A stretch of DNA of 45,305 bases, taken from Escherichia virus TH11. A program made the position numbers and the translations under genes. The notes under the pieces were generated by a model. It searched no databases. It was given only the letters and a program-made list of their open reading frames with translations, and was not told the origin of the DNA. Shown here in pieces: positions 28,289 through 41,805 of this stretch. The stretch is from the sequence record MT446389.1, one strand, 5' to 3'. Within the stretch, counting starts at the first letter, position 1; every line of letters begins with the position of its first letter.

Positions 28289-28291
28289 GGA

Positions 28292-28316
28292 GAAGGGGCC
28301 ATACGGCCCCTTTTTA
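28292..28316. terminator. bidirectional hairpin terminator
   Basis: aaggggcc-atac-ggcccctt followed by TTTTT; between convergent genes. Confidence 0.55.
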
Positions 28317-29784: not shown

Positions 29785-29805
29785 TGGTTGCATTATTGGT
29801 TGCAA
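29785..29805. promoter_or_regulatory. tandem ATTGGTTGCA motifs, candidate leftward promoter
   Basis: Minus strand reads TTGCAA, 17 nt, TATATT upstream of gene 29458..29727. Confidence 0.45.
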
Positions 29806-30263
29806 GTGAATTTTGCAAGATTCACAGAATAAATATGCGGGACCAGTTCTTCACACGCCCGTTTGATGGCGGCGATGTTCTTCGCGCAGTCGTCAATGAT
29901 GACCAGTTCGTTAACTTCTGCATAGCACACCAGGCCAAATACGGAACGGGCCTTGTACTCTGGCGGCGGCGTGTCATCAAGCATATGGCGTAAGAACAGA
30001 CGACCTTTCGGGAATCTATCCAATTGCTCTTTCGTTGACTCCCAGCAATCTGACTGGCGGTTTGACAGGTACGCAATGTCGAAGCCCTGTTTAGCGTACA
30101 TGCGCAATAACGGCAGCATGTCATAATTAATGTCTTCGCGGACGTGGGCCTTATGCCACTTCGCCCAAAACGTTGATTTAGTCTTGATCCCCGGAACTAG
30201 GTCGTCGCGCACACTGCTTGACCCGTTGATAACGCCATCTAAATCGCAAATCAGTAGTTTCAT
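29793..30263 (-). CDS. HAD-superfamily phosphatase-like protein
   Basis: Motif I CDLDGVI, motif II IAYLSNR, motif IV VIIDD. Confidence 0.55.
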   Translation of the reverse strand: MKLLICDLDGVINGSSSVRDDLVPGIKTKSTFWAKWHKAHVREDINYDMLPLLRMYAKQGFDIAYLSNRQSDCWESTKEQLDRFPKGRLFLRHMLDDTPPPEYKARSVFGLVCYAEVNELVIIDDCAKNIAAIKRACEELVPHIYSVNLAKFTCNQ

Positions 30264-30481
30264 TTTAATTCCGCCATTAAATTTTCACGTACAATACGGG
30301 CCGAGAATGCGTCGCACACAAGATGGCAACGCGCCGTCATGACAAGCCAGCCAGTTAGGTCAAGGCCCAGCAATTGATGAGGTTGGCTTGCGCGCCTTAC
30401 TTTATTTCCAGGGAAAACCTGGTAGCGTTTAATTATTTCATCCACGACGCGAGGACTTCGGTCGACGACTAAGATATTCAT
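30260..30481 (-). CDS. hypothetical protein
   Basis: 73-aa ORF overlapping neighbours at both ends. Confidence 0.35.
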   Translation of the reverse strand: MNILVVDRSPRVVDEIIKRYQVFPGNKVRRASQPHQLLGLDLTGWLVMTARCHLVCDAFSARIVRENLMAELK

Positions 30482-30947
30482 TTAATTCACCTTCGCTCAT
30501 TATTTCGATTTGTGCGCTGCCGTTTGGCGGCACTTCTTCAAAGATTATCAATTGCTGGCACTTGTTGTTACTCGGCCCGACTTCGCCGGTGACGGCGTGT
30601 ATAAATCTAATCCGCCAGTCCAGAAGAATTATCAGGTTTGCAGTCTTCCTGGCCAGCTTCGCCCACTTCGTCGACGTGTCCTGATTCAGTAGCATGACCG
30701 TCCGGCGTCCGTGCGCTGCGCACTCTACCCACGGCAGCGGATCGGAATACGGCGGATTGCACCACTTCCACCCTTTCAACTCGGACCAGTCCACATCAAG
30801 CGCACTGTGTTCCGCCGTGAAGTAACGCGGTAGCAGATGATTGGCGTCGCTTGCCGCCATATCGTAACGGAATCGGTATTTCCGACGAAGCGGTTTAAAT
30901 AAAGCTGGCGGCGTGCGCCAGCTATCTTTTTGCTCATTCTCCGTCAT
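30438..30947 (-). CDS. DNA N6-adenine methyltransferase (phage Dam-type)
   Basis: 169 aa with WRTPP N-terminal motif and catalytic NPPY (WCNPPYS). Confidence 0.7.
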   Translation of the reverse strand: MTENEQKDSWRTPPALFKPLRRKYRFRYDMAASDANHLLPRYFTAEHSALDVDWSELKGWKWCNPPYSDPLPWVECAAHGRRTVMLLNQDTSTKWAKLARKTANLIILLDWRIRFIHAVTGEVGPSNNKCQQLIIFEEVPPNGSAQIEIMSEGELNEYLSRRPKSSRRG

Positions 30948-31392
30948 AGTCGGGATCTATCGCATACAGGGCGGTTTTCTTGCCACTGGATAGCACGCGT
31001 TGGACTCGGGATAGCTCCGCCCTACTGAGCGGTCGGCTATCGGAATAGTAGCTGCCGTTTGCACGCCACGCTATACGCACCAGTCCTTTCCGCGGGATCG
31101 AAGACTGGCTGCCCTTCGGACGGACGTACTCCTCGGCCAGTTTGCAATGCTCGCGCAGACCTTCGGCAGTGATGCGGTTTAGCGCGACGGTGGTTGTGTA
31201 CCCGGTGCGCTGCATAATACCCATCAACTCATACAGCAGTTCGAAGCGCTCCTCTAACTCCTTGCGCATCTTTTCCTCGCCTTCATAGCTCGCCAGGTAG
31301 GTATCCGCGAGCGCGTTCGCCCGTTCGACCTGTTCGCGGGCTTCGAGGCATTGCGCGGCCCAGTAATTTTTCTCTTCTTGTAAAATTTTCAT
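30934..31392 (-). CDS. hypothetical protein
   Basis: 152 aa, coiled-coil N-terminus. Confidence 0.45.
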   Translation of the reverse strand: MKILQEEKNYWAAQCLEAREQVERANALADTYLASYEGEEKMRKELEERFELLYELMGIMQRTGYTTTVALNRITAEGLREHCKLAEEYVRPKGSQSSIPRKGLVRIAWRANGSYYSDSRPLSRAELSRVQRVLSSGKKTALYAIDPDYDGE

Positions 31393-31446
31393 CGTGTTGT
31401 CTCCAGGTATTAAAAAAGGCGTCCAAACCGGACACCCTTAAGATAA

Positions 31447-31473
31447 TGCAACCAATATGATTATGCAACCAAT
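31447..31473. promoter_or_regulatory. tandem TGCAACCAAT motifs, candidate leftward promoter
   Basis: Minus strand reads TTGCAT, 17 nt, TATCTT upstream of gene starting 31392. Confidence 0.45.
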
Positions 31474-31797
31474 TTACGCATAAAAGTTCGGGTCGCGTGC
31501 GACGTCTACCAGGTAAAGGTTGCTTATGCGGTTGCCGTAGTGCCCTGGAGTGCGCTGGCGGCACACAACGGCGAAGCCTGGAGGGATTGTATTGCCCGTC
31601 TCAATAATCCACGCCACGCGTGCGCCAGACAGCGTCTTTCCGTTGCATTCGATACGTGTTCCACCATCGGCAGTATTGATGTTGCCAATCTTGCAGCCGG
31701 TGGACTTCAGACGGATGACTCCGGTTTTGCTGTCGTAGGTGAATAGCTGGTTAGTCATTGCGACTGAAAAATCGATGGTTTCGTATGTAGCGTTCAT
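31474..31797 (-). CDS. hypothetical protein, possible degenerate HNH_3-like
   Basis: 107 aa; Gly-rich beta-hairpin pattern loosely like HNH_3 but catalytic His not evident. Confidence 0.3.
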   Translation of the reverse strand: MNATYETIDFSVAMTNQLFTYDSKTGVIRLKSTGCKIGNINTADGGTRIECNGKTLSGARVAWIIETGNTIPPGFAVVCRQRTPGHYGNRISNLYLVDVARDPNFYA

Positions 31798-32504
31798 TTT
31801 AAATTTTCCTCGTTAACCGCTATCGCGAAGCCGCGCGGAGTGAGTGAGCGGATTAATTTTGTACGAGCGGATTTACCACCGAGGCGACTATACTGTTTCG
31901 AGTACCCTTTTTCAACGAAAACAGGTTTCTTCTCTGGCATACGGAAGCCGTTGCCGGTCCATAAGCAAGTCAGCTTCGGATATGAATCGCGGGCGTTGAT
32001 GTATTCCGGGAAGAGCGGGTGTACGTCATCCTCCGGCAGATACCCCCCATACTCCCACGGGTCGAACGAGTGATCCGGCTTGCGCCACTGGGTGGAAAGC
32101 ACACTGCGCGGATTCTCAATCATATATGGCACTTCGAAGAAGTCACCCAGGTAAGCGGCGATCTTCGCGGTGCGCACCGCCTTAAGCTGAAAGGCGGGGT
32201 CTTTTGCACGTTTGCGCGGGAAAGCTGGCGCGCCGCTCACTGCCAGATCCGTACACGGAGGGAACGCATAGATTATATCCGGCGTACCGAAATCGCCATT
32301 CATCGCGCGGTCCACAAAGTCCATATCGATAAACTCATTGCGATATCGGATTCCACGACCATAAATCCGGTAGTCAAGGTATGATCCGTGATCGGCTTCG
32401 GAGTAGTTGAAGCAATAACACTTATGCCCCATCTCGGCAGCACGCTCAATCATCAAGCCGCTGCCGTCAAACAATGACCAGATTGTCATTTTCGCAATAG
32501 TCAT
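31794..32504 (-). CDS. DNA cytosine-5 methyltransferase-like protein (short)
   Basis: Motif I-like LFDGSG, motif IV-like FPPCTDLAVSG, motif VI-like IENPRSVL; 236 aa is short for a full C5-MTase. Confidence 0.5.
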   Translation of the reverse strand: MTIAKMTIWSLFDGSGLMIERAAEMGHKCYCFNYSEADHGSYLDYRIYGRGIRYRNEFIDMDFVDRAMNGDFGTPDIIYAFPPCTDLAVSGAPAFPRKRAKDPAFQLKAVRTAKIAAYLGDFFEVPYMIENPRSVLSTQWRKPDHSFDPWEYGGYLPEDDVHPLFPEYINARDSYPKLTCLWTGNGFRMPEKKPVFVEKGYSKQYSRLGGKSARTKLIRSLTPRGFAIAVNEENLK

Positions 32505-33925
32505 TTGCGCGCCTTCTTAGCTTTCATGTATTCCATCAAGTCGTCCTGAATGTCTCGCTTACTGTCGCGACGCTCGGCGACCAATTCGTCCAGTGTCCCG
32601 CGAGCCTGGATAATGTAGACGAATACTGGTCGAGGGTGTCCGGCTTGCATCTGGCGAACCGGCCCGATACGTTCAACGATCTGCGAAAAGTGTTCAAAGT
32701 TCCAGGTGTCTGAGAAGATTGCCAGGTGATGACCGCCGTCCTGCAAGTTAAGGCCGTGACCAGCCGATGCCGGGTGTGCGAACATGATGGGGATCTCGCC
32801 TCTGTTCCACGCTTCCATATCCTTATTGCCTTGCTTACCCTTACCCAGCGCTACGCCGTGCGGAAATTTCTTCTTAAGACGTGCCAGGTCATGCTTATAC
32901 TGATACGCAACGAGCAACGGCGCGCCGTTCAACTCCTCCACGATACTTTCCAGCGCGTCCAGTTTAGCGTCGTGAATTTTCACCCATTCATCGGTGCGCT
33001 CGCCGTCTTCGTCGACCTTATATACGGCCCCGGAAGCAAGCTGAAGGCACTTAATGGTCTTCGACGCGGCGTTTGCGGCCTCCACAGTTCCGCTTTCCAG
33101 TTCGGCAAATAGCTCACTTTCAAACTGGTCGTAAATCTTGCGGGCTTTCTTCGGCAGGTCCACGACAACCGGCGTATAGATTGGCTTGTCGCACCCGAAG
33201 TATTCAGCCGCGTCAACGGTTAGTGATACGTCAGACAGGCGTTGTTGTATTTCTTTCTCGGAGTTCTTTAGCGGGGCGTGCTGCATAGTGAAGCTGCCAG
33301 GCTTAACCGGCTTGCTAATGAACCAGCGATCGGTAAATGCCTTATAGCTACTGCCGAGGCGTTCGCCACCGTCGACAAACCACGTCTGACCCCACAGGTC
33401 TTTCAGTCCGTTTGGAGCGGGCGTGCCGGTCAGGTTAATCCAGCGCTTGACGTGCTTATGTGCGATCGCCGCCAGGGCGCGGGCGCGCTTACTGCCCTGC
33501 TTGCTGCGGTAGCCTTTCAGCTTAGTGGATTCATCGGCAACAACGACCGTAAAGGGCCACGCATCGCCGTAATAGTCAACCAACCACTCAACCACATCAT
33601 AGTTAACACAAACCACGTTAGCGTCGCTCTCAAGCGCTGCAATACGGTCCTTCTCAGGTCCAGTGCCGTCTACGACCAGCAGGGATGAGAATCGCCATTT
33701 CTCCTGCTCCGGTGGCCAGGTGCCGGACGCAACGCGCAGCGGGGCCAGCACCAGTACGCGGTCCTCATGATGGGACAGGACGCCAGTCTGGAACATTTTA
33801 TTCAGCGCCCACATTGTCGCGCCGGTTTTACCGGATCCCATTGTCGCCCATATATTACATCGCTTATGCTTGAGGATGAACGCGGTTATCAACTTCTGAT
33901 ATTCGCGGCGTCGGAATCTTGCCAT
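32501..33925 (-). CDS. SNF2-family ATP-dependent helicase
   Basis: Walker A MGSGKTG, motif II VVADESTK; start at internal ATG 33925, track GTG at 34015 would overlap upstream gene. Confidence 0.7.
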   Translation of the reverse strand: MARFRRREYQKLITAFILKHKRCNIWATMGSGKTGATMWALNKMFQTGVLSHHEDRVLVLAPLRVASGTWPPEQEKWRFSSLLVVDGTGPEKDRIAALESDANVVCVNYDVVEWLVDYYGDAWPFTVVVADESTKLKGYRSKQGSKRARALAAIAHKHVKRWINLTGTPAPNGLKDLWGQTWFVDGGERLGSSYKAFTDRWFISKPVKPGSFTMQHAPLKNSEKEIQQRLSDVSLTVDAAEYFGCDKPIYTPVVVDLPKKARKIYDQFESELFAELESGTVEAANAASKTIKCLQLASGAVYKVDEDGERTDEWVKIHDAKLDALESIVEELNGAPLLVAYQYKHDLARLKKKFPHGVALGKGKQGNKDMEAWNRGEIPIMFAHPASAGHGLNLQDGGHHLAIFSDTWNFEHFSQIVERIGPVRQMQAGHPRPVFVYIIQARGTLDELVAERRDSKRDIQDDLMEYMKAKKARK

Positions 33926-33929
33926 GTCT

Positions 33930-34154
33930 TTATTCCGCCTTTTTCCAGACTTCTGTCTCACTGTTCCAGTTCCTTTTTGTGGCGTCGTAGTTGGTGGCGT
34001 GTCCGATGTGGACACCGGTAGCCCGGAAGCTCTTAAATTTTTGCCAGCACACCGTCAACGGCAGCGGGTAATTCATGCCTGCGATAAACCACACGCGATC
34101 GCCCGGTTTACATTCGCCCAGCTTGGTGAGTCGGTAATGTTCTTTCATCGTCAT
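33930..34154 (-). CDS. hypothetical protein
   Basis: 74-aa ORF; weak RBS. Confidence 0.3.
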   Translation of the reverse strand: MTMKEHYRLTKLGECKPGDRVWFIAGMNYPLPLTVCWQKFKSFRATGVHIGHATNYDATKRNWNSETEVWKKAE

Positions 34155-34192
34155 GTCTCTCTAAAAATGGCGGGACAAGCCCGCCGTATTGA

Positions 34193-34366
34193 TTATTCTT
34201 GTTCTGCGCGATAGCGGCGCTGCCGTTCGCGCTCTTTCTTATTGCGGCACGACTTGCACTCGGCCCGATGCCCGTCCGGGCTGCGCGCAGTCTTACCGGT
34301 GTATTTGTGGAACTGGGACAGCGGCTTGATGCAGCCGCAATTACTGCAACGTTTTTCTTCAATCAT
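34193..34366 (-). CDS. small zinc-ribbon protein
   Basis: 57 aa from internal ATG; CSNCGC...CKSC four-Cys pattern, basic C-terminus. Confidence 0.35.
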   Translation of the reverse strand: MIEEKRCSNCGCIKPLSQFHKYTGKTARSPDGHRAECKSCRNKKERERQRRYRAEQE

Positions 34367-34406
34367 TTCTAAAATCCTCGATAGTGCTAACCGGCACACT
34401 ATACCG

Positions 34407-34685
34407 CTACGCGACCAATTCAGCAACCAATAAATCACAGTCGGCTATGTTGTCGATAACGCGAACGTCCGCACCGCGGCGGGCCATTCGTTCATGTTCA
34501 CGTACCTGGTGCGGCTTCGGTTTCCCACCTGGGCGCTTCACTTCGACGAACACTATTTTGCCGTTGATGATAATAATCAGGTCGGGCGCACCTGCGCGCC
34601 CCTCCCATGCCAGTTTTCGGCAGAATCCCCCAACGGCTTTAACCAGCTTCATCAGGTGACTTTGTATCTTGCCTTCTGGTGTCAT
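34407..34685 (-). CDS. VRR-NUC domain nuclease
   Basis: 92 aa with PD-(D/E)XK core GAPDLIII...VFVEVKRPGGKP...Q. Confidence 0.7.
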   Translation of the reverse strand: MTPEGKIQSHLMKLVKAVGGFCRKLAWEGRAGAPDLIIIINGKIVFVEVKRPGGKPKPHQVREHERMARRGADVRVIDNIADCDLLVAELVA

Positions 34686-34873
34686 TTGGTCTGCAACTCC
34701 ACGTTACGCAGACGAAGGTCTACCGGTATATCCGACCGGCCGGTTAGTGCCAGCGCCAGGTTTTCAGGCGTGACGAGTGCCGTAATGGTCTTGCCACGTT
34801 CCAGTCTAATGACGATTCGAATCTCGTCATTGTCCGTCGCGCCAGCGCGCATAATGCTCATTTCTGCTTTCAT
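34682..34873 (-). CDS. hypothetical protein
   Basis: About 63 aa from internal ATG (MKAEMS) abutting DNA polymerase stop. Confidence 0.35.
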   Translation of the reverse strand: MKAEMSIMRAGATDNDEIRIVIRLERGKTITALVTPENLALALTGRSDIPVDLRLRNVELQTK

Positions 34874-34877
34874 AATC

Positions 34878-37169
34878 TTACTTCCTGTACCTGTACATAA
34901 TGTCGCCTTCGGCGGCAAGTGGGAAGCCTTTCGCCCAAATAGGCAGGTCGCACATCAGCGCGCAAAGCTCCTCGGTCGTGTAGTCGTCGGTGTCCGGCAC
35001 TTCTGTGATCAATTCGTCGTGTACTGACAGGACGATTTCATATCCGGCAGCTTCAACGCCTGGCATGGACCATGCGAGAATATCGCGGCACAACGCCTGT
35101 ACGATGTTCTCCGTCAGTTTGCCGCCGTAGGTGTACTGGAAGCCCCACTGGCGCGTAGTCTGATTCTCGCCCTGGTATTTGATGCGGGTGCTGGTGCGCT
35201 TCTTGCCGGTGTCTTCGTCAATCTCGGTCGTGACCGACAGCGCGATGCCTGGGTAGCTCATGATGCGCCCGGACGGCAACTCAATTTTCAACCACCACCC
35301 AGCGGCGTTCGGGTCGTCGCGCTCCTCGTCGAAGGTTGGGTCGTGCTTCGCCTTCGTGCGCACAATCTTAAGCGCTTTCCTACCGTCCGGGCGAACGTTC
35401 GCGCCGGCCCAGTATGCTTTGCCAGGATTGCGGATCGCACATAACACCGCGTCCTCAAGCTCGGCCCAAAAGGCTACCGTCTTCGGGTGAGCCTCGCGCC
35501 ACATACGTTTGATTGCGTCACAAGTCAGCCATACGTTTTTCGGCAGTATGTATGTTGGGCGCTCGTCCTTCTTACCGGGCTTCGGCGGGCGCTTCGCTTC
35601 GTTAATGCGGGCGTACTCATAACCACGTTTCGCCGCGGCCCAAATGTGATCCGGGAACGTGCCTTTCATCACGTCCGCCATAGTGTAAAGGTCGAGGCCC
35701 AGGTTTTTAGCGAACTGCAAGAACGCCGCGACGCCGCCACCATAGCCCAGTCCCAATTCACACGCCTTACCGATCTGGCGCAAGTCTTTGCGGTTGGCTT
35801 TGATGTAATCCGGGTCAAGGCCGAACATCTTACCGGCAGTCTCGCAATAGATATCGCGACCGGCCTTAAACACCATTAGCGCGGTTTTCTCGCCCGCGAT
35901 CCAGGCAAGGCCACGCCCTTCCACGTTGGAGTAGTCCGCGACGACAAACTTCTTGCCCTTCGCCGGAATGATGCACCCACGAACGGTCGAGGCGGTCAGC
36001 TTAGATATGTCATACGCCCAGTGCGCGGTCCCGCGTAACAGGGAGTTGATGCCGTTGGTGAGCATGTGCGACCGCACCCAAAACGAGACGTCGCTCTCGC
36101 CTTCGCGGCGCTTAATCTTCCCTTCGTGGTCGTCGCTATACTCGCCGCGTGCCAGGTTTTGCGGCTGGAAGCCTTTACCTGCCCAGCGCAGCGTGCGCTT
36201 TGCACCACCATACTGAAGACACCCACGGCGGCGACCATCTGCGGATAAGCCATTAACGAGCGGATTGTACTTAGTCGAGGCCGTTGATGACGCGCCGAGG
36301 CGCATTTCGATAAGCGCTTTGCCTTCGTCGGGGAAGTCCGTGTCTTCAAGCAGGTCGTTAAGTGTGGATTTCTGCGCGTTGTGGATTGTGAACGCCGGGG
36401 CGATATCACGCAGGATTGGCAGGAAGTCATTGCCTGTCAGTTTACCACCAAATCGCTCCCAGGCTTCCTCCTTCAATTCTTCCTTATGCGCCTGCACCGC
36501 TTTGATCGCGGCGTTCGCCAGGTCAACGTCCACATAGAATCCGCGGTCGTTGATCAACTGGTCAATAAGCAGTATCTCGTCTTCCTTCGGAGTATTACCC
36601 CAGTCCGGTATGCGCCAGTAGACCTCACGCATCGCGATAATATCCAGCGCGGCATATCGCAGAAATTTGGCCCATTCTTCAGGGTGAGTCTCGCGCGTGT
36701 AGCGGCGTATTTTGTAGGTCTTAGGGGTAGGCTTACAGAATCGTTTGATCAGCGCCTTGCCTGCCTTATCCTTCGCGTGCTCTGCGTCAACGCCCAGCAC
36801 CTGACACTGCATATCGAGGCTACCCGGCAGCGCGTGCCGAAAGGCCATAATCATGGTATCTTCGATCTGGCACACTGGCAGGTCAATGCCCCACTTCTCG
36901 CGAATGACCAGGCGGTCAAACAGGAGGCCGTTAGCCATCACGATTTTTGCTTTCTTGCGGCATACCTGGCGGAGCGCCTTGCGCAGTTCACGCGGCATTG
37001 TTGGGGATTCAGTGGCATCCCATGTCTGCACGCGGCCCTCGTCGATGGCGTATGTGCAAATCATAATCTCGGTGGTTGGGTGCTCTGCGTAGGCGTACGC
37101 CCCTACTTTCTTCAGGTCAACCCCGCTGAATGTCTCGGTGTCGAGAAACAGGCGTTCGAAGTCTTTCAT
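34878..37169 (-). CDS. DNA polymerase, family A, with 3'-5' exonuclease domain
   Basis: 763 aa; Exo I motif FLDTETFSG; typical Pol I-like C-terminal polymerase region. Confidence 0.9.
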   Translation of the reverse strand: MKDFERLFLDTETFSGVDLKKVGAYAYAEHPTTEIMICTYAIDEGRVQTWDATESPTMPRELRKALRQVCRKKAKIVMANGLLFDRLVIREKWGIDLPVCQIEDTMIMAFRHALPGSLDMQCQVLGVDAEHAKDKAGKALIKRFCKPTPKTYKIRRYTRETHPEEWAKFLRYAALDIIAMREVYWRIPDWGNTPKEDEILLIDQLINDRGFYVDVDLANAAIKAVQAHKEELKEEAWERFGGKLTGNDFLPILRDIAPAFTIHNAQKSTLNDLLEDTDFPDEGKALIEMRLGASSTASTKYNPLVNGLSADGRRRGCLQYGGAKRTLRWAGKGFQPQNLARGEYSDDHEGKIKRREGESDVSFWVRSHMLTNGINSLLRGTAHWAYDISKLTASTVRGCIIPAKGKKFVVADYSNVEGRGLAWIAGEKTALMVFKAGRDIYCETAGKMFGLDPDYIKANRKDLRQIGKACELGLGYGGGVAAFLQFAKNLGLDLYTMADVMKGTFPDHIWAAAKRGYEYARINEAKRPPKPGKKDERPTYILPKNVWLTCDAIKRMWREAHPKTVAFWAELEDAVLCAIRNPGKAYWAGANVRPDGRKALKIVRTKAKHDPTFDEERDDPNAAGWWLKIELPSGRIMSYPGIALSVTTEIDEDTGKKRTSTRIKYQGENQTTRQWGFQYTYGGKLTENIVQALCRDILAWSMPGVEAAGYEIVLSVHDELITEVPDTDDYTTEELCALMCDLPIWAKGFPLAAEGDIMYRYRK

Positions 37170-40388: not shown

Positions 40389-40418
40389 TAAAAAGAGGCC
40401 CGCTAATATGCGGGCCGG
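40389..40418 (-). terminator. intra-operon terminator/attenuator on minus strand
   Basis: ggcccgc-taatat-gcgggcc followed by CTTTTT on the minus strand. Confidence 0.45.
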
Positions 40419-41269: not shown

Positions 41270-41299
41270 ATGATAGATTGGTTGCAGGATAGGTGTCAA
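41270..41299 (-). promoter_or_regulatory. candidate early leftward promoter with operator-like motif in spacer
   Basis: Minus strand TTGACA, 18-nt spacer containing TGCAACCAAT, TATCAT. Confidence 0.4.
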
Positions 41300-41310
41300 C
41301 AACTAATTTC

Positions 41311-41346
41311 AAAAAAAAAGCGCCGAGGCAAAATGCGACGGCGCTA
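41311..41346 (-). terminator. rho-independent terminator on minus strand
   Basis: 7-bp stem AGCGCCG/CGGCGCT followed on minus strand by nine T. Confidence 0.45.
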
Positions 41347-41368
41347 ACCAATAAGAGACAATGAGACG
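41311..41368 (-). ncRNA. candidate short leftward transcript (about 58 nt)
   Basis: Minus-strand TTGAAA, 16 nt, TAATAA promoter about 60 nt upstream of the terminator; no ORF. Confidence 0.25.
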
Positions 41369-41415
41369 AGAATTATTATTACACGCGTGCGCGCCCGTTT
41401 CAATATCCAAAGGAT

Positions 41416-41444
41416 TTGACACCGTGCAGTTTTGGGTGTAGTTT
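41416..41444 (+). promoter_or_regulatory. candidate rightward sigma70-like promoter
   Basis: Perfect -35 TTGACA at 41416-41421, 17-nt spacer, weak -10 TAGTTT, upstream of gene at 41476. Confidence 0.4.
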
Positions 41445-41475
41445 CGTTGGTCATTAACCAACTGAGGGCAGAGCA

Positions 41476-41805
41476 ATGAATGTAAACGACGCAATCGAAA
41501 TGTTAACGAAGACTGTTTGCAGTGAGACAAGCCGGTCGTGGGCATACACCGATGCCGTGGGGGCTGTGTTATTTGAAATCGAACGACTGCGGCTTACCGA
41601 AAAAGAATTGCGCGCCAGGCTGGAACTACTCAACGGTACAGCAGCAAGCAAGCTGCAAAAACACAATGAAGAAATGGAAGAATACAAAAAGCAGGTTATC
41701 CGTTTGCGCGCCGAGGGTAAATCATGGGCGATGATTGCCGAGTTGACCGGGATTAATCAGAGCACAGTGCGCTCCTGGGTACGCAATAATAAAACTTCTA
41801 AGTAA
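41476..41805 (+). CDS. HTH DNA-binding regulator
   Basis: 109 aa; C-terminal KSWAMIAELTGINQSTVRSWV is a helix-turn-helix; first gene of rightward operon. Confidence 0.55.
   Translation: MNVNDAIEMLTKTVCSETSRSWAYTDAVGAVLFEIERLRLTEKELRARLELLNGTAASKLQKHNEEMEEYKKQVIRLRAEGKSWAMIAELTGINQSTVRSWVRNNKTSK

Follow-up and report, generated by a model that had tools for sequence, protein, structure and literature searches.

Escherichia virus TH11 (sequence record MT446389.1; the 45,305-nucleotide stretch analyzed here is referred to below as the window) carries two orphan DNA methyltransferase (MTase) genes within a minus-strand gene cluster at positions 30438-34685. One encodes a Dam-type N6-adenine MTase and the other a short Dcm-like C5-cytosine MTase (C5-MTase); both lie inside a replication module, with no cognate restriction gene. 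We consider it quite probable that the interval represents the middle of the Dhillonvirus leftward replication/modification operon, and that the two enzymes act on the phage's own DNA. Judging by the activity of its homologues, the C5-MTase, a member of the phage 'Dcm-like' family, would be functional as a C5-cytosine methyltransferase despite its minimal size.

A nucleotide search with the interval 30200-34950 revealed 100% identity to Escherichia virus TH13 (MT446391, a record without annotation) and 88-96% identity to approximately 150 further Dhillonvirus phages. Matches were obtained in 160 phage records, in 149 of which at least 80% of the query was covered. Judged by these matches, the phage is a Dhillonvirus and the interval is a block conserved across the genus. 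Eight conserved minus-strand open reading frames (ORFs) were found in 30438-34685 (Table 1), in the order dam, orf152, the HNH-like gene, the C5-MTase gene, the SNF2 helicase gene, orf74, the zinc-ribbon ORF and the VRR-NUC gene, with a DNA polymerase I gene located upstream of the cluster. The gene order of the BASEL phage KarlBarth matches, as does that of a divergent contig (L008). In annotated relatives such as KarlBarth, 'Dam-like N6-adenine methyltransferase' is followed by 'putative homing endonuclease', then by 'Dcm-like C5 cytosine methyltransferase' and 'DNA helicase', and finally by DNA polymerase I. An earlier note on this DNA had placed here five adjacent leftward genes, encoding a small Dam with an NPPY motif, a short C5 protein with motifs I, IV and VI and no obvious target-recognition domain, a possibly degenerate HNH-like protein, an SNF2-family helicase and a VRR-NUC nuclease. 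All five proved to be real minus-strand ORFs of the kinds named, and the outer coordinates were exact; strict adjacency did not hold, because orf152, orf74 and the zinc-ribbon ORF lie between them.

The ratio of nonsynonymous to synonymous substitution rates (dN/dS) was calculated by comparing the genes of the window (identical to those of TH13) with those of phage KarlBarth. Purifying selection was evident in all genes, with values ranging from 0.014 to 0.21; that of orf152 was above those of most of its neighbours. Since the region is kept in 160 phage records and the dN/dS values fall within this range, the ORFs of the cluster are far beyond chance ORFs. Neighbouring genes overlap by 4-14 nt at several junctions, which suggests translational coupling.

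Table 1. Genes of the cluster in the window, with the basis of each assignment and the dN/dS value relative to phage KarlBarth
Feature	Coordinates	Strand	Length (aa)	Basis of assignment	dN/dS
Dam-type N6-adenine DNA methyltransferase (Dam)	30438-30947	-	169	small phage 'Dam' family PF05869	0.071
orf152, conserved ORF between the HNH-like gene and dam	30934-31392	-	152	phrog_10530 (E 8.8e-90)	0.21
HNH-like protein, putative nuclease-dead HNH_3 relic	31474-31797	-	107	phrog_99; alignment to HNH_3 members	0.038
Short Dcm-like DNA C5-cytosine methyltransferase (C5-MTase)	31794-32504	-	236	phrog_757; motifs I, IV and VI	0.014
SNF2-family helicase/ATPase	32501-33925	-	474	PF00176 (E 1.9e-10); phrog_62 (E 6.4e-157)	0.020
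orf74, conserved ORF	33930-34154	-	74	phrog_9291 (E 4.1e-47); syntenic in KarlBarth	0.20
CxxC...CxxC zinc-ribbon protein (from ATG)	34193-34366	-	57	KarlBarth annotates 174 nt	
VRR-NUC (PD-(D/E)xK) nuclease	34407-34685	-	92	PF08774 (E 6.2e-6); phrog_93 (E 9.8e-31)	0.084
DNA polymerase I (PolA), upstream of the cluster					0.025

The sequence of the C5-MTase contains motif I (FDGSG, residues 12-16), motif IV (PPC, residues 82-84, with Cys84 as the nucleophile by homology) and motif VI (ENP, residues 130-132). In an alignment of 37 family members, F12, G14, S15 and G16 of motif I, as well as all residues of PPC and ENP, were found to be invariant. Residue K177 sits in a motif VIII-like strand (177-184). 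There is no sizeable target-recognition domain, as only ~45 residues (185-222) lie between this strand and the C-terminal helices. The motif X region has no G-N, and a C-terminal helix (224-234) follows the invariant R219-S220-L221-x-P223-R224. The protein matched phrog_757 ('DNA methyltransferase') with an E value of 5.5e-84 over residues 2-234, while NCBIfam and PADLOC gave no match. Three relatives with 62-63% identity (P0023, P0026 and P0055) scored 24.7-28.5 bits against PF00145 (cutoff 22), over motifs I-IV only, and the Dcm of phage KarlJaspers scored 11.1 bits. The start at 32504 is preceded by a Shine-Dalgarno-like GAAGG sequence and overlaps the stop of the helicase gene; an alternative start (ATG 32489) would give a protein of 231 aa, as the relatives are annotated.

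The AlphaFold2 model of the protein had a predicted local distance difference test (pLDDT) value of 88.7. In a fold comparison, all top structural matches of this model were DNA C5-MTases, the nearest being DNMT3 catalytic domains; the predicted three-dimensional fold is that of a DNA C5-MTase. The family is widely distributed: of 50,697 phage records searched with tblastn, 1530 had a match, 1419 of the 1530 covering at least 80% of the query, and a protein search returned 2880 clusters. Among its carriers are Drexlerviridae and Klebsiella siphoviruses, as well as myoviruses of the rV5-like and T4-like groups.

Experimental data are available for two homologues. The first is represented by the 'Dcm-like' protein of phage KarlJaspers (Bas06), which is 54% identical to the C5-MTase over the full length, with both proteins having 236 aa and belonging to the same PHROG family. 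The genome of phage K42 is 95.4% identical to that of Bas06, its dcm is likewise 711 bp long, and the residue numbers fit. All K42 mutants escaping retron Ec86 had lost or disrupted dcm, dcm alone was toxic in cells carrying Ec86, and a CCTGG site in the multicopy single-stranded DNA (msDNA) of the retron was needed for defence against K42 (bioRxiv 10.1101/2023.08.16.553469). K42 Dcm raised the level of 5-methylcytosine (5mC) on the msDNA, as determined by liquid chromatography-mass spectrometry, and with K42 Dcm C82A/E128A/K175A/K176A both the 5mC rise and the triggering of Ec86 were abolished (bioRxiv 10.1101/2023.08.16.553469). In an alignment made with the KarlJaspers protein, these four residues correspond to C84, E130, K177 and L178 of the window enzyme.

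The second homologue is gp52 of Pantoea phage AAS23 (Sauletekiovirus, Drexlerviridae), with 52% identity to the C5-MTase. For the virion DNA of AAS23, both Dam and Dcm methylation were reported, based on restriction digests with a panel including EcoRII and MboI; gp52 had 'no conserved domain' by BLASTP, and C5-MTase matches by HHpred (PMC8004638). By analogy with the K42 CCTGG requirement and the reported Dcm methylation of AAS23, the target of the C5-MTase is most likely CCWGG.

The N6-adenine MTase belongs to the small phage Dam family, of which members were found in 1948 phage records, among them those of Stx phages (e.g. VT2-Sakai) and T1-like phages. It matched PF05869 (E 4.2e-36, 124.6 bits with the cutoff at 28.1, profile positions 4-147 of 169), phrog_111 (E 4.6e-55) and an orphan MTase model of PADLOC (E 2.5e-11). 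The (D/N)PPY catalytic motif IV is present as NPPY (residues 64-67), and YDMAAS (residues 28-33) contains a putative Asp for binding of S-adenosylmethionine (SAM). Identity amounts to 40% with the Dam of Edwardsiella phage eiAU-183, 37% with the VT2-Sakai homologue and 30-31% with the Dams of T1-like phages. GATC specificity is known for some members of the PF05869 family. From these characterised relatives and the reported Dam methylation of AAS23, the most likely target of the window enzyme is GATC, with N6-methyladenine (m6A) as the product. A PDB sequence search with Dam gave nothing useful, and no direct data were found in the literature on PF05869 specificity and T1 Dam. A kinship with the non-specific Hia5/Hin1523 adenine methylases was considered and rejected, because Hia5-type enzymes carry DPPY and fall into another, Dam/DpnM-like family, to which EcoDam, T4Dam and DpnM are akin and of which one member is given as 281 residues. 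A perfect 8-bp inverted repeat (AGCTGGCG...CGCCAGCT) was observed at 30903-30923, within the first Dam codons and just past the orf152 overlap. It scored terminator-like on both strands and might affect Dam translation.

In the proposed model, both methylases would modify nascent, replicating phage DNA. In the C5-MTase, C6 of the flipped cytosine would be the target of a nucleophilic attack by Cys84, with Glu130 protonating N3 and the FDGSG loop binding SAM. Since host Dam lags behind replication in the case of phage lambda, whose DNA is only about 50% Dam-methylated, replication of the TH11 genome would likewise outpace host Dam, and the phage's own enzymes would complete GATC methylation of the progeny DNA. 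By analogy with GATC, the C5-MTase would bring about full methylation of CCWGG. Progeny DNA would then be shielded from Dam- and Dcm-blocked restriction enzymes (MboI/DpnII-type and EcoRII-type), also in hosts lacking Dam or Dcm. The cost would be sensing by retrons, of phage Dcm by Retron-Eco1/Ec86 and of phage Dam by Retron-Sen2; in later papers, phage Dcm is the accepted trigger of Retron-Eco1, and phage Dam triggers Retron-Sen2.

Site counts were compared with expectations from a maximal-order Markov model of the whole window. With 170 GATC sites (observed/expected 0.80) and 156 CCWGG sites (0.99), neither motif is strongly avoided, and these counts would fit methylation protecting both. 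AAGCTT (1 site against 13.7 expected), GAATTC (2 against 7.6) and CTGCAG (4 against 15.1) are depleted 4- to 14-fold, and CTAG is also depleted (19 against 53), which suggests restriction-site avoidance alongside methylation. McrBC recognises R-5mC; the product C-5mC-WGG would avoid this pattern, in keeping with the isolation of these phages on E. coli K-12. The methylases may offer an anti-restriction benefit. The self-modification that the earlier note had read from the two orphan MTases gains support, by analogy, from the lack of a cognate restriction gene and from the K42 and AAS23 experiments on relatives.

Several points weigh against this reading. E. coli hosts usually have Dam and Dcm already, and the selective advantage of phage-borne enzymes is not obvious. 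At the level of the individual proteins, Dam remained under the equivalog cutoff of TIGR01712 (88.3 bits against 97.05). The C5-MTase had no Pfam match at E<0.1, which places it under the gathering threshold of PF00145, and PDB sequence searches with the protein and with a profile of 37 sequences found no solved C5-MTase. As regards the homologues, the comparison was made with the KarlJaspers protein, standing in for K42 Dcm, and the CCWGG assignment of the K42 enzyme comes from the 'Dcm-like' label and the loss of defence in the CCTGG mutant rather than from a genome-wide motif determination. The methylation of AAS23 DNA could be due to host Dam and Dcm, and no Dhillonvirus or TH13 methylation data were found in the searched literature. 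Finally, in the BASEL study, Dhillonvirus and Drexlerviridae were less resistant to type I/II restriction-modification than Queuovirinae, and the presence of methyltransferase genes in Drexlerviridae had no simple link with restriction resistance. Any anti-restriction benefit must therefore be narrow.

The BASEL results and the usual methylation of GATC and CCWGG by the hosts themselves also speak for a different role of active methylases, which we regard as unlikely though deserving of some weight: the enzymes could serve mainly to mark DNA for the phage's own processes, such as packaging, the timing of replication, the control of gene expression or the evasion of mismatch repair. The position of both genes within a replication operon, amid the helicase and other DNA-metabolism genes, agrees with such a role, as do the very strong selection on the two genes and the retention of the pair in two genera. 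However, no methylation-dependent phage process is known in this group. The C5 gene moves among unrelated phages (Drexlerviridae, rV5-like, T4-like) with unrelated neighbours, as would be expected of a portable counter-defence gene, and spontaneous K42 mutants without dcm still form plaques (bioRxiv 10.1101/2023.08.16.553469). Self-methylation that protects the phage genome remains our preferred explanation.

We give very little credence to an alternative chemistry, in which the C5 enzyme would transfer a carboxymethyl group from carboxy-SAM (Cx-SAM), made by host CmoA, instead of or besides a methyl group, yielding 5-carboxymethylcytosine. An enzyme of this type is CmoX of Synechococcus phage S-B43 (PDB 8yf3), a DNA cytosine C5-carboxymethyltransferase that accepts only Cx-SAM (PMC12783734). 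The idea draws on the invariant R219 and R224, which flank the motif X position, held by Asn304 in M.HhaI and by the Cx-SAM-binding Arg350 in CmoX; in addition, the work on the K42 homologue sought 5mC only, and carboxymethylcytosine would have been missed. Against this stand the clear 5mC signal of K42 Dcm and the FPPC motif of the window enzyme, which is not the SPPC that defines CmoX. Furthermore, DNMT3A has an Arg at the motif X position (GRSW, which P223-R224-G-F resembles by eye), yet uses SAM. When the C5 family profile was compared with CmoX by hhalign, only motifs I-IV were aligned (probability 14%), with motif I facing FAGGG and PPC facing the PPC of CmoX (C98). A forced longer alignment placed R219-S220 opposite G349-R350, and so Ser220 rather than an Arg opposite Arg350, with near-zero confidence past motif IV. 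The hhalign comparison of the family profile with the C5-MTase of eiAU-183 was uninformative. No homologues of CmoA or CmoY were found within the window (tblastn, best E 3.7).

Finally, that the short protein is catalytically inactive or no DNA methyltransferase at all (e.g. a DNA-binding decoy or an RNA methylase) could be argued from the empty domain and PDB searches, the ~45 residues in place of a target-recognition domain and a motif X that is not confidently placed, but is scarcely credible in view of the invariant catalytic Cys, ENP Glu and SAM loop, the dN/dS of 0.014, the lowest of the block, the predicted DNA C5-MTase fold, the 54%-identical homologue close to the K42 enzyme, whose formation of 5mC in vivo depends on the Cys, Glu and Lys residues, and the 52%-identical homologue in AAS23, whose DNA was reported to be Dcm-methylated. 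The description of this protein in the earlier note as possibly 'non-canonical or inactive' is thus upheld in its first part (231-236 aa, below the Pfam threshold, a small segment in place of the target-recognition domain) and not in its second. By analogy with its characterised members, we regard the family as one of working enzymes, non-canonical in size and with almost no recognition domain.

The gene following the C5-MTase, whose stop its start overlaps by 4 nt, encodes the HNH-like protein. This protein did not reach the threshold of HNH_3 (PF13392; 13 bits against a cutoff of 24.8, over profile positions 5-21 only), and matched phrog_99 with an E value of 3e-16. Only 24 relatives emerged when 1.84 billion representative proteins were searched with a profile, the distant ones being bona fide HNH_3(+AP2) endonucleases. 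In the alignment, the bona fide members have AHR...IDHINGN..DNR..NLR...N..N followed by an AP2 domain, while the HNH-like protein has GAR...VVCRQRTPGHYGNRISNLYL and ends 11 residues on. Its closest relatives have Cys, Leu or Pro where the catalytic His of the D-H dyad would be. The protein lacks the catalytic His, the downstream Asn/His metal-ligand region and the AP2 DNA-binding domain; its homology to HNH_3 is apparent from two retained elements, namely YD..TG..K..G..NGK..(H)R.AW at the N-terminus and NR..NL. The best structural match, a weak one, was I-HmuI. The gene was found in 161 phage records, nearly all of Dhillonvirus, at full length and at the same locus, i.e. it is fixed at one locus genus-wide, unlike sporadic mobile homing endonucleases. 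Because the motif has lost its catalytic His and its C-terminal part, the protein is best read from its sequence as the remnant of a homing endonuclease of the HNH_3 type, domesticated and catalytically dead, which makes the degeneracy suspected earlier more precise.

An HNH-like homologue with 41% identity is encoded between the helicase and C5-MTase genes of Edwardsiella phage eiAU-183 (Eiauvirus). The gene order in this phage (L003, 1-6400) is PolA, VRR-NUC, helicase, HNH-like relic, C5-MTase and Dam (PF05869). The eiAU-183 relic has an extra NUMOD-like N-terminus, and the C5-MTase is an unrelated enzyme of canonical length (330 aa, PF00145). Since eiAU-183 keeps the order of the module with an unrelated C5-MTase, the C5-methylase slot appears to have been refilled during evolution. 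In KarlJaspers (Drexlerviridae), the neighbours of the C5 gene are unrelated to the HNH-like protein and the SNF2 helicase, and a conserved partner of the C5 gene beyond the Dhillonvirus/Eiauvirus lineage was rejected on this account. Because the neighbours in Drexlerviridae are unrelated and the K42 enzyme works alone, the HNH relic is, by analogy, dispensable for methylation; that it acts as an accessory or regulatory partner of the C5 methylase, whose stop codon its start overlaps, is an unlikely reading.

The gap between the HNH-like gene and orf152 (31393-31473, minus strand), one of few in the gene block, contains a hairpin with a 10-bp stem (AGGGUGUCC...GGACGCCUU) followed by a U-tract, as well as two copies of the direct repeat TTGGTTGCAT. 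The fold z-score was -1.1, which is not significant. The gap could represent an internal attenuator or a promoter.

The remaining genes of the cluster encode a helicase, a nuclease and small proteins. The SNF2-family protein scored above the cutoff of PF00176 (40.8 bits against 24.9), with Helicase_C being sub-threshold (17.2 against 23.5), and contains a Walker A motif (GSGKT at 30) and DES at 131. Apart from the orphan MTase match, PADLOC gave only generic similarity to SNF2 proteins. The longest ORF begins with a GTG at 34015 (32501-34015); the ATG at 33925 is probably the start, because the gene is annotated in KarlBarth as 474 aa (1425 nt). The VRR-NUC nuclease is just above the cutoff of PF08774 (26.7 bits against 23.8), with PD at residues 34-35 and EVK at 48-50. 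Together with the polymerase and the SNF2 helicase, it would act in replication or recombination.

Among the small ORFs, orf152 is syntenic in KarlBarth and in contig L008. The label 'DNA ligase', attached to phrog_10530 and spread into several GenBank annotations, was rejected for this protein, for which Pfam and NCBIfam gave no match even at E 10, and looks unfounded. No Pfam match was obtained for orf74. The zinc-ribbon ORF would encode 81 aa if read from a GTG at 34438. It matched phrog_5558 ('Lar-like', E 1.8e-17), as well as zinc-ribbon parts of endonuclease VII/HNH phrogs. The 'Lar-like restriction alleviation' label had no Pfam or NCBIfam support even at E 10 and was not adopted; the protein could be a counter-defence factor or a mere nuclease fragment.

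The cluster lies inside a leftward gene block that extends from ~41.3 kb to ~28.3 kb. Three sigma70-like promoter matches (up to 11/12 positions) were found at its upstream end, at 41270-41506 on the minus strand, which is likely the start of early leftward transcription, and a bidirectional terminator-like hairpin at 28290-28315 closes the block. The 'early' timing of the cluster would follow from the leftward block, the promoter matches and the terminator-like hairpin. A further strong terminator-like hairpin was observed at 40397-40416. Downstream of the cluster, at 29793-30263 (minus strand), there is a 156-aa ORF starting with DLDG (a DxD-type motif) and having weak HAD-phosphatase matches (Acid_phosphat_B, E 1e-4; PNKP phosphatase, 0.04), possibly encoding a nucleotide or polynucleotide phosphatase. 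In the course of the database searches, Dhillonvirus-like genes were also observed in MG065648, MG065663 and MG065685 ('Campylobacter phage A144/A134/A112a', labelled as C. jejuni phages), including an HNH-like protein with 90% identity and the C5-MTase. These are probably mislabelled records or contaminated assemblies.

The cluster as such is an already known system: the phage has a GenBank record, the same annotated genes occur in over 100 relatives, and the C5 family is active in a related phage. The practical value of the analysis is a correct annotation for an unannotated record, in which 'Dcm-like' should stand for a working methylase, and 'HNH endonuclease' should not be taken to mean a nuclease. 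Because phage Dcm and Dam trigger retron defences, the methylases matter for the phage-host outcome, and their presence helps to foresee whether a phage will be sensitive to Retron-Eco1 and Retron-Sen2 and whether it will withstand restriction of the EcoRII and MboI types. Two questions are raised, namely how a protein of ~230 aa with almost no recognition domain reads a 5-bp site, and why a dead HNH relic is under strong selection beside C5-methylase genes in two phage genera.

Canonical C5-MTases such as M.EcoKDcm and M.HhaI are about 330-470 aa long, and both their motifs IX and X and a recognition domain of considerable size are readily distinguished. Unlike these, the window enzyme has 236 aa, is sub-threshold in Pfam and shows no sequence-detectable similarity to solved C5-MTases. 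The catalytic domains of DNMT3A and DNMT3B, nearest to it in the fold comparison, share only 13-17% identity with it, and it differs from them in having neither regulatory domains nor a DNMT3L-type partner; the resemblance of the predicted fold may reflect a common loss of the large recognition domain. CmoX differs in its length (372 aa), in its clear motifs IX and X, and in the adjoining genes for CmoA and the ligase CmoY. In the AAS23 system, gp52 resembles the window enzyme in escaping ordinary domain searches, and this phage also has a Dam-superfamily methylase, 31% identical to the window Dam and of the longer T1-like form (246 aa), although its dam and gp52 genes are far apart, unlike those of the window cluster. 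The K42/KarlJaspers enzyme comes from a different phage family (Drexlerviridae), the neighbours of its gene are unrelated to those in the window, and its K176 corresponds to Leu178; it has in common with the window C5-MTase the catalytic Cys, the Glu of ENP, one Lys of the mutated pair and a DNMT3-like predicted fold.

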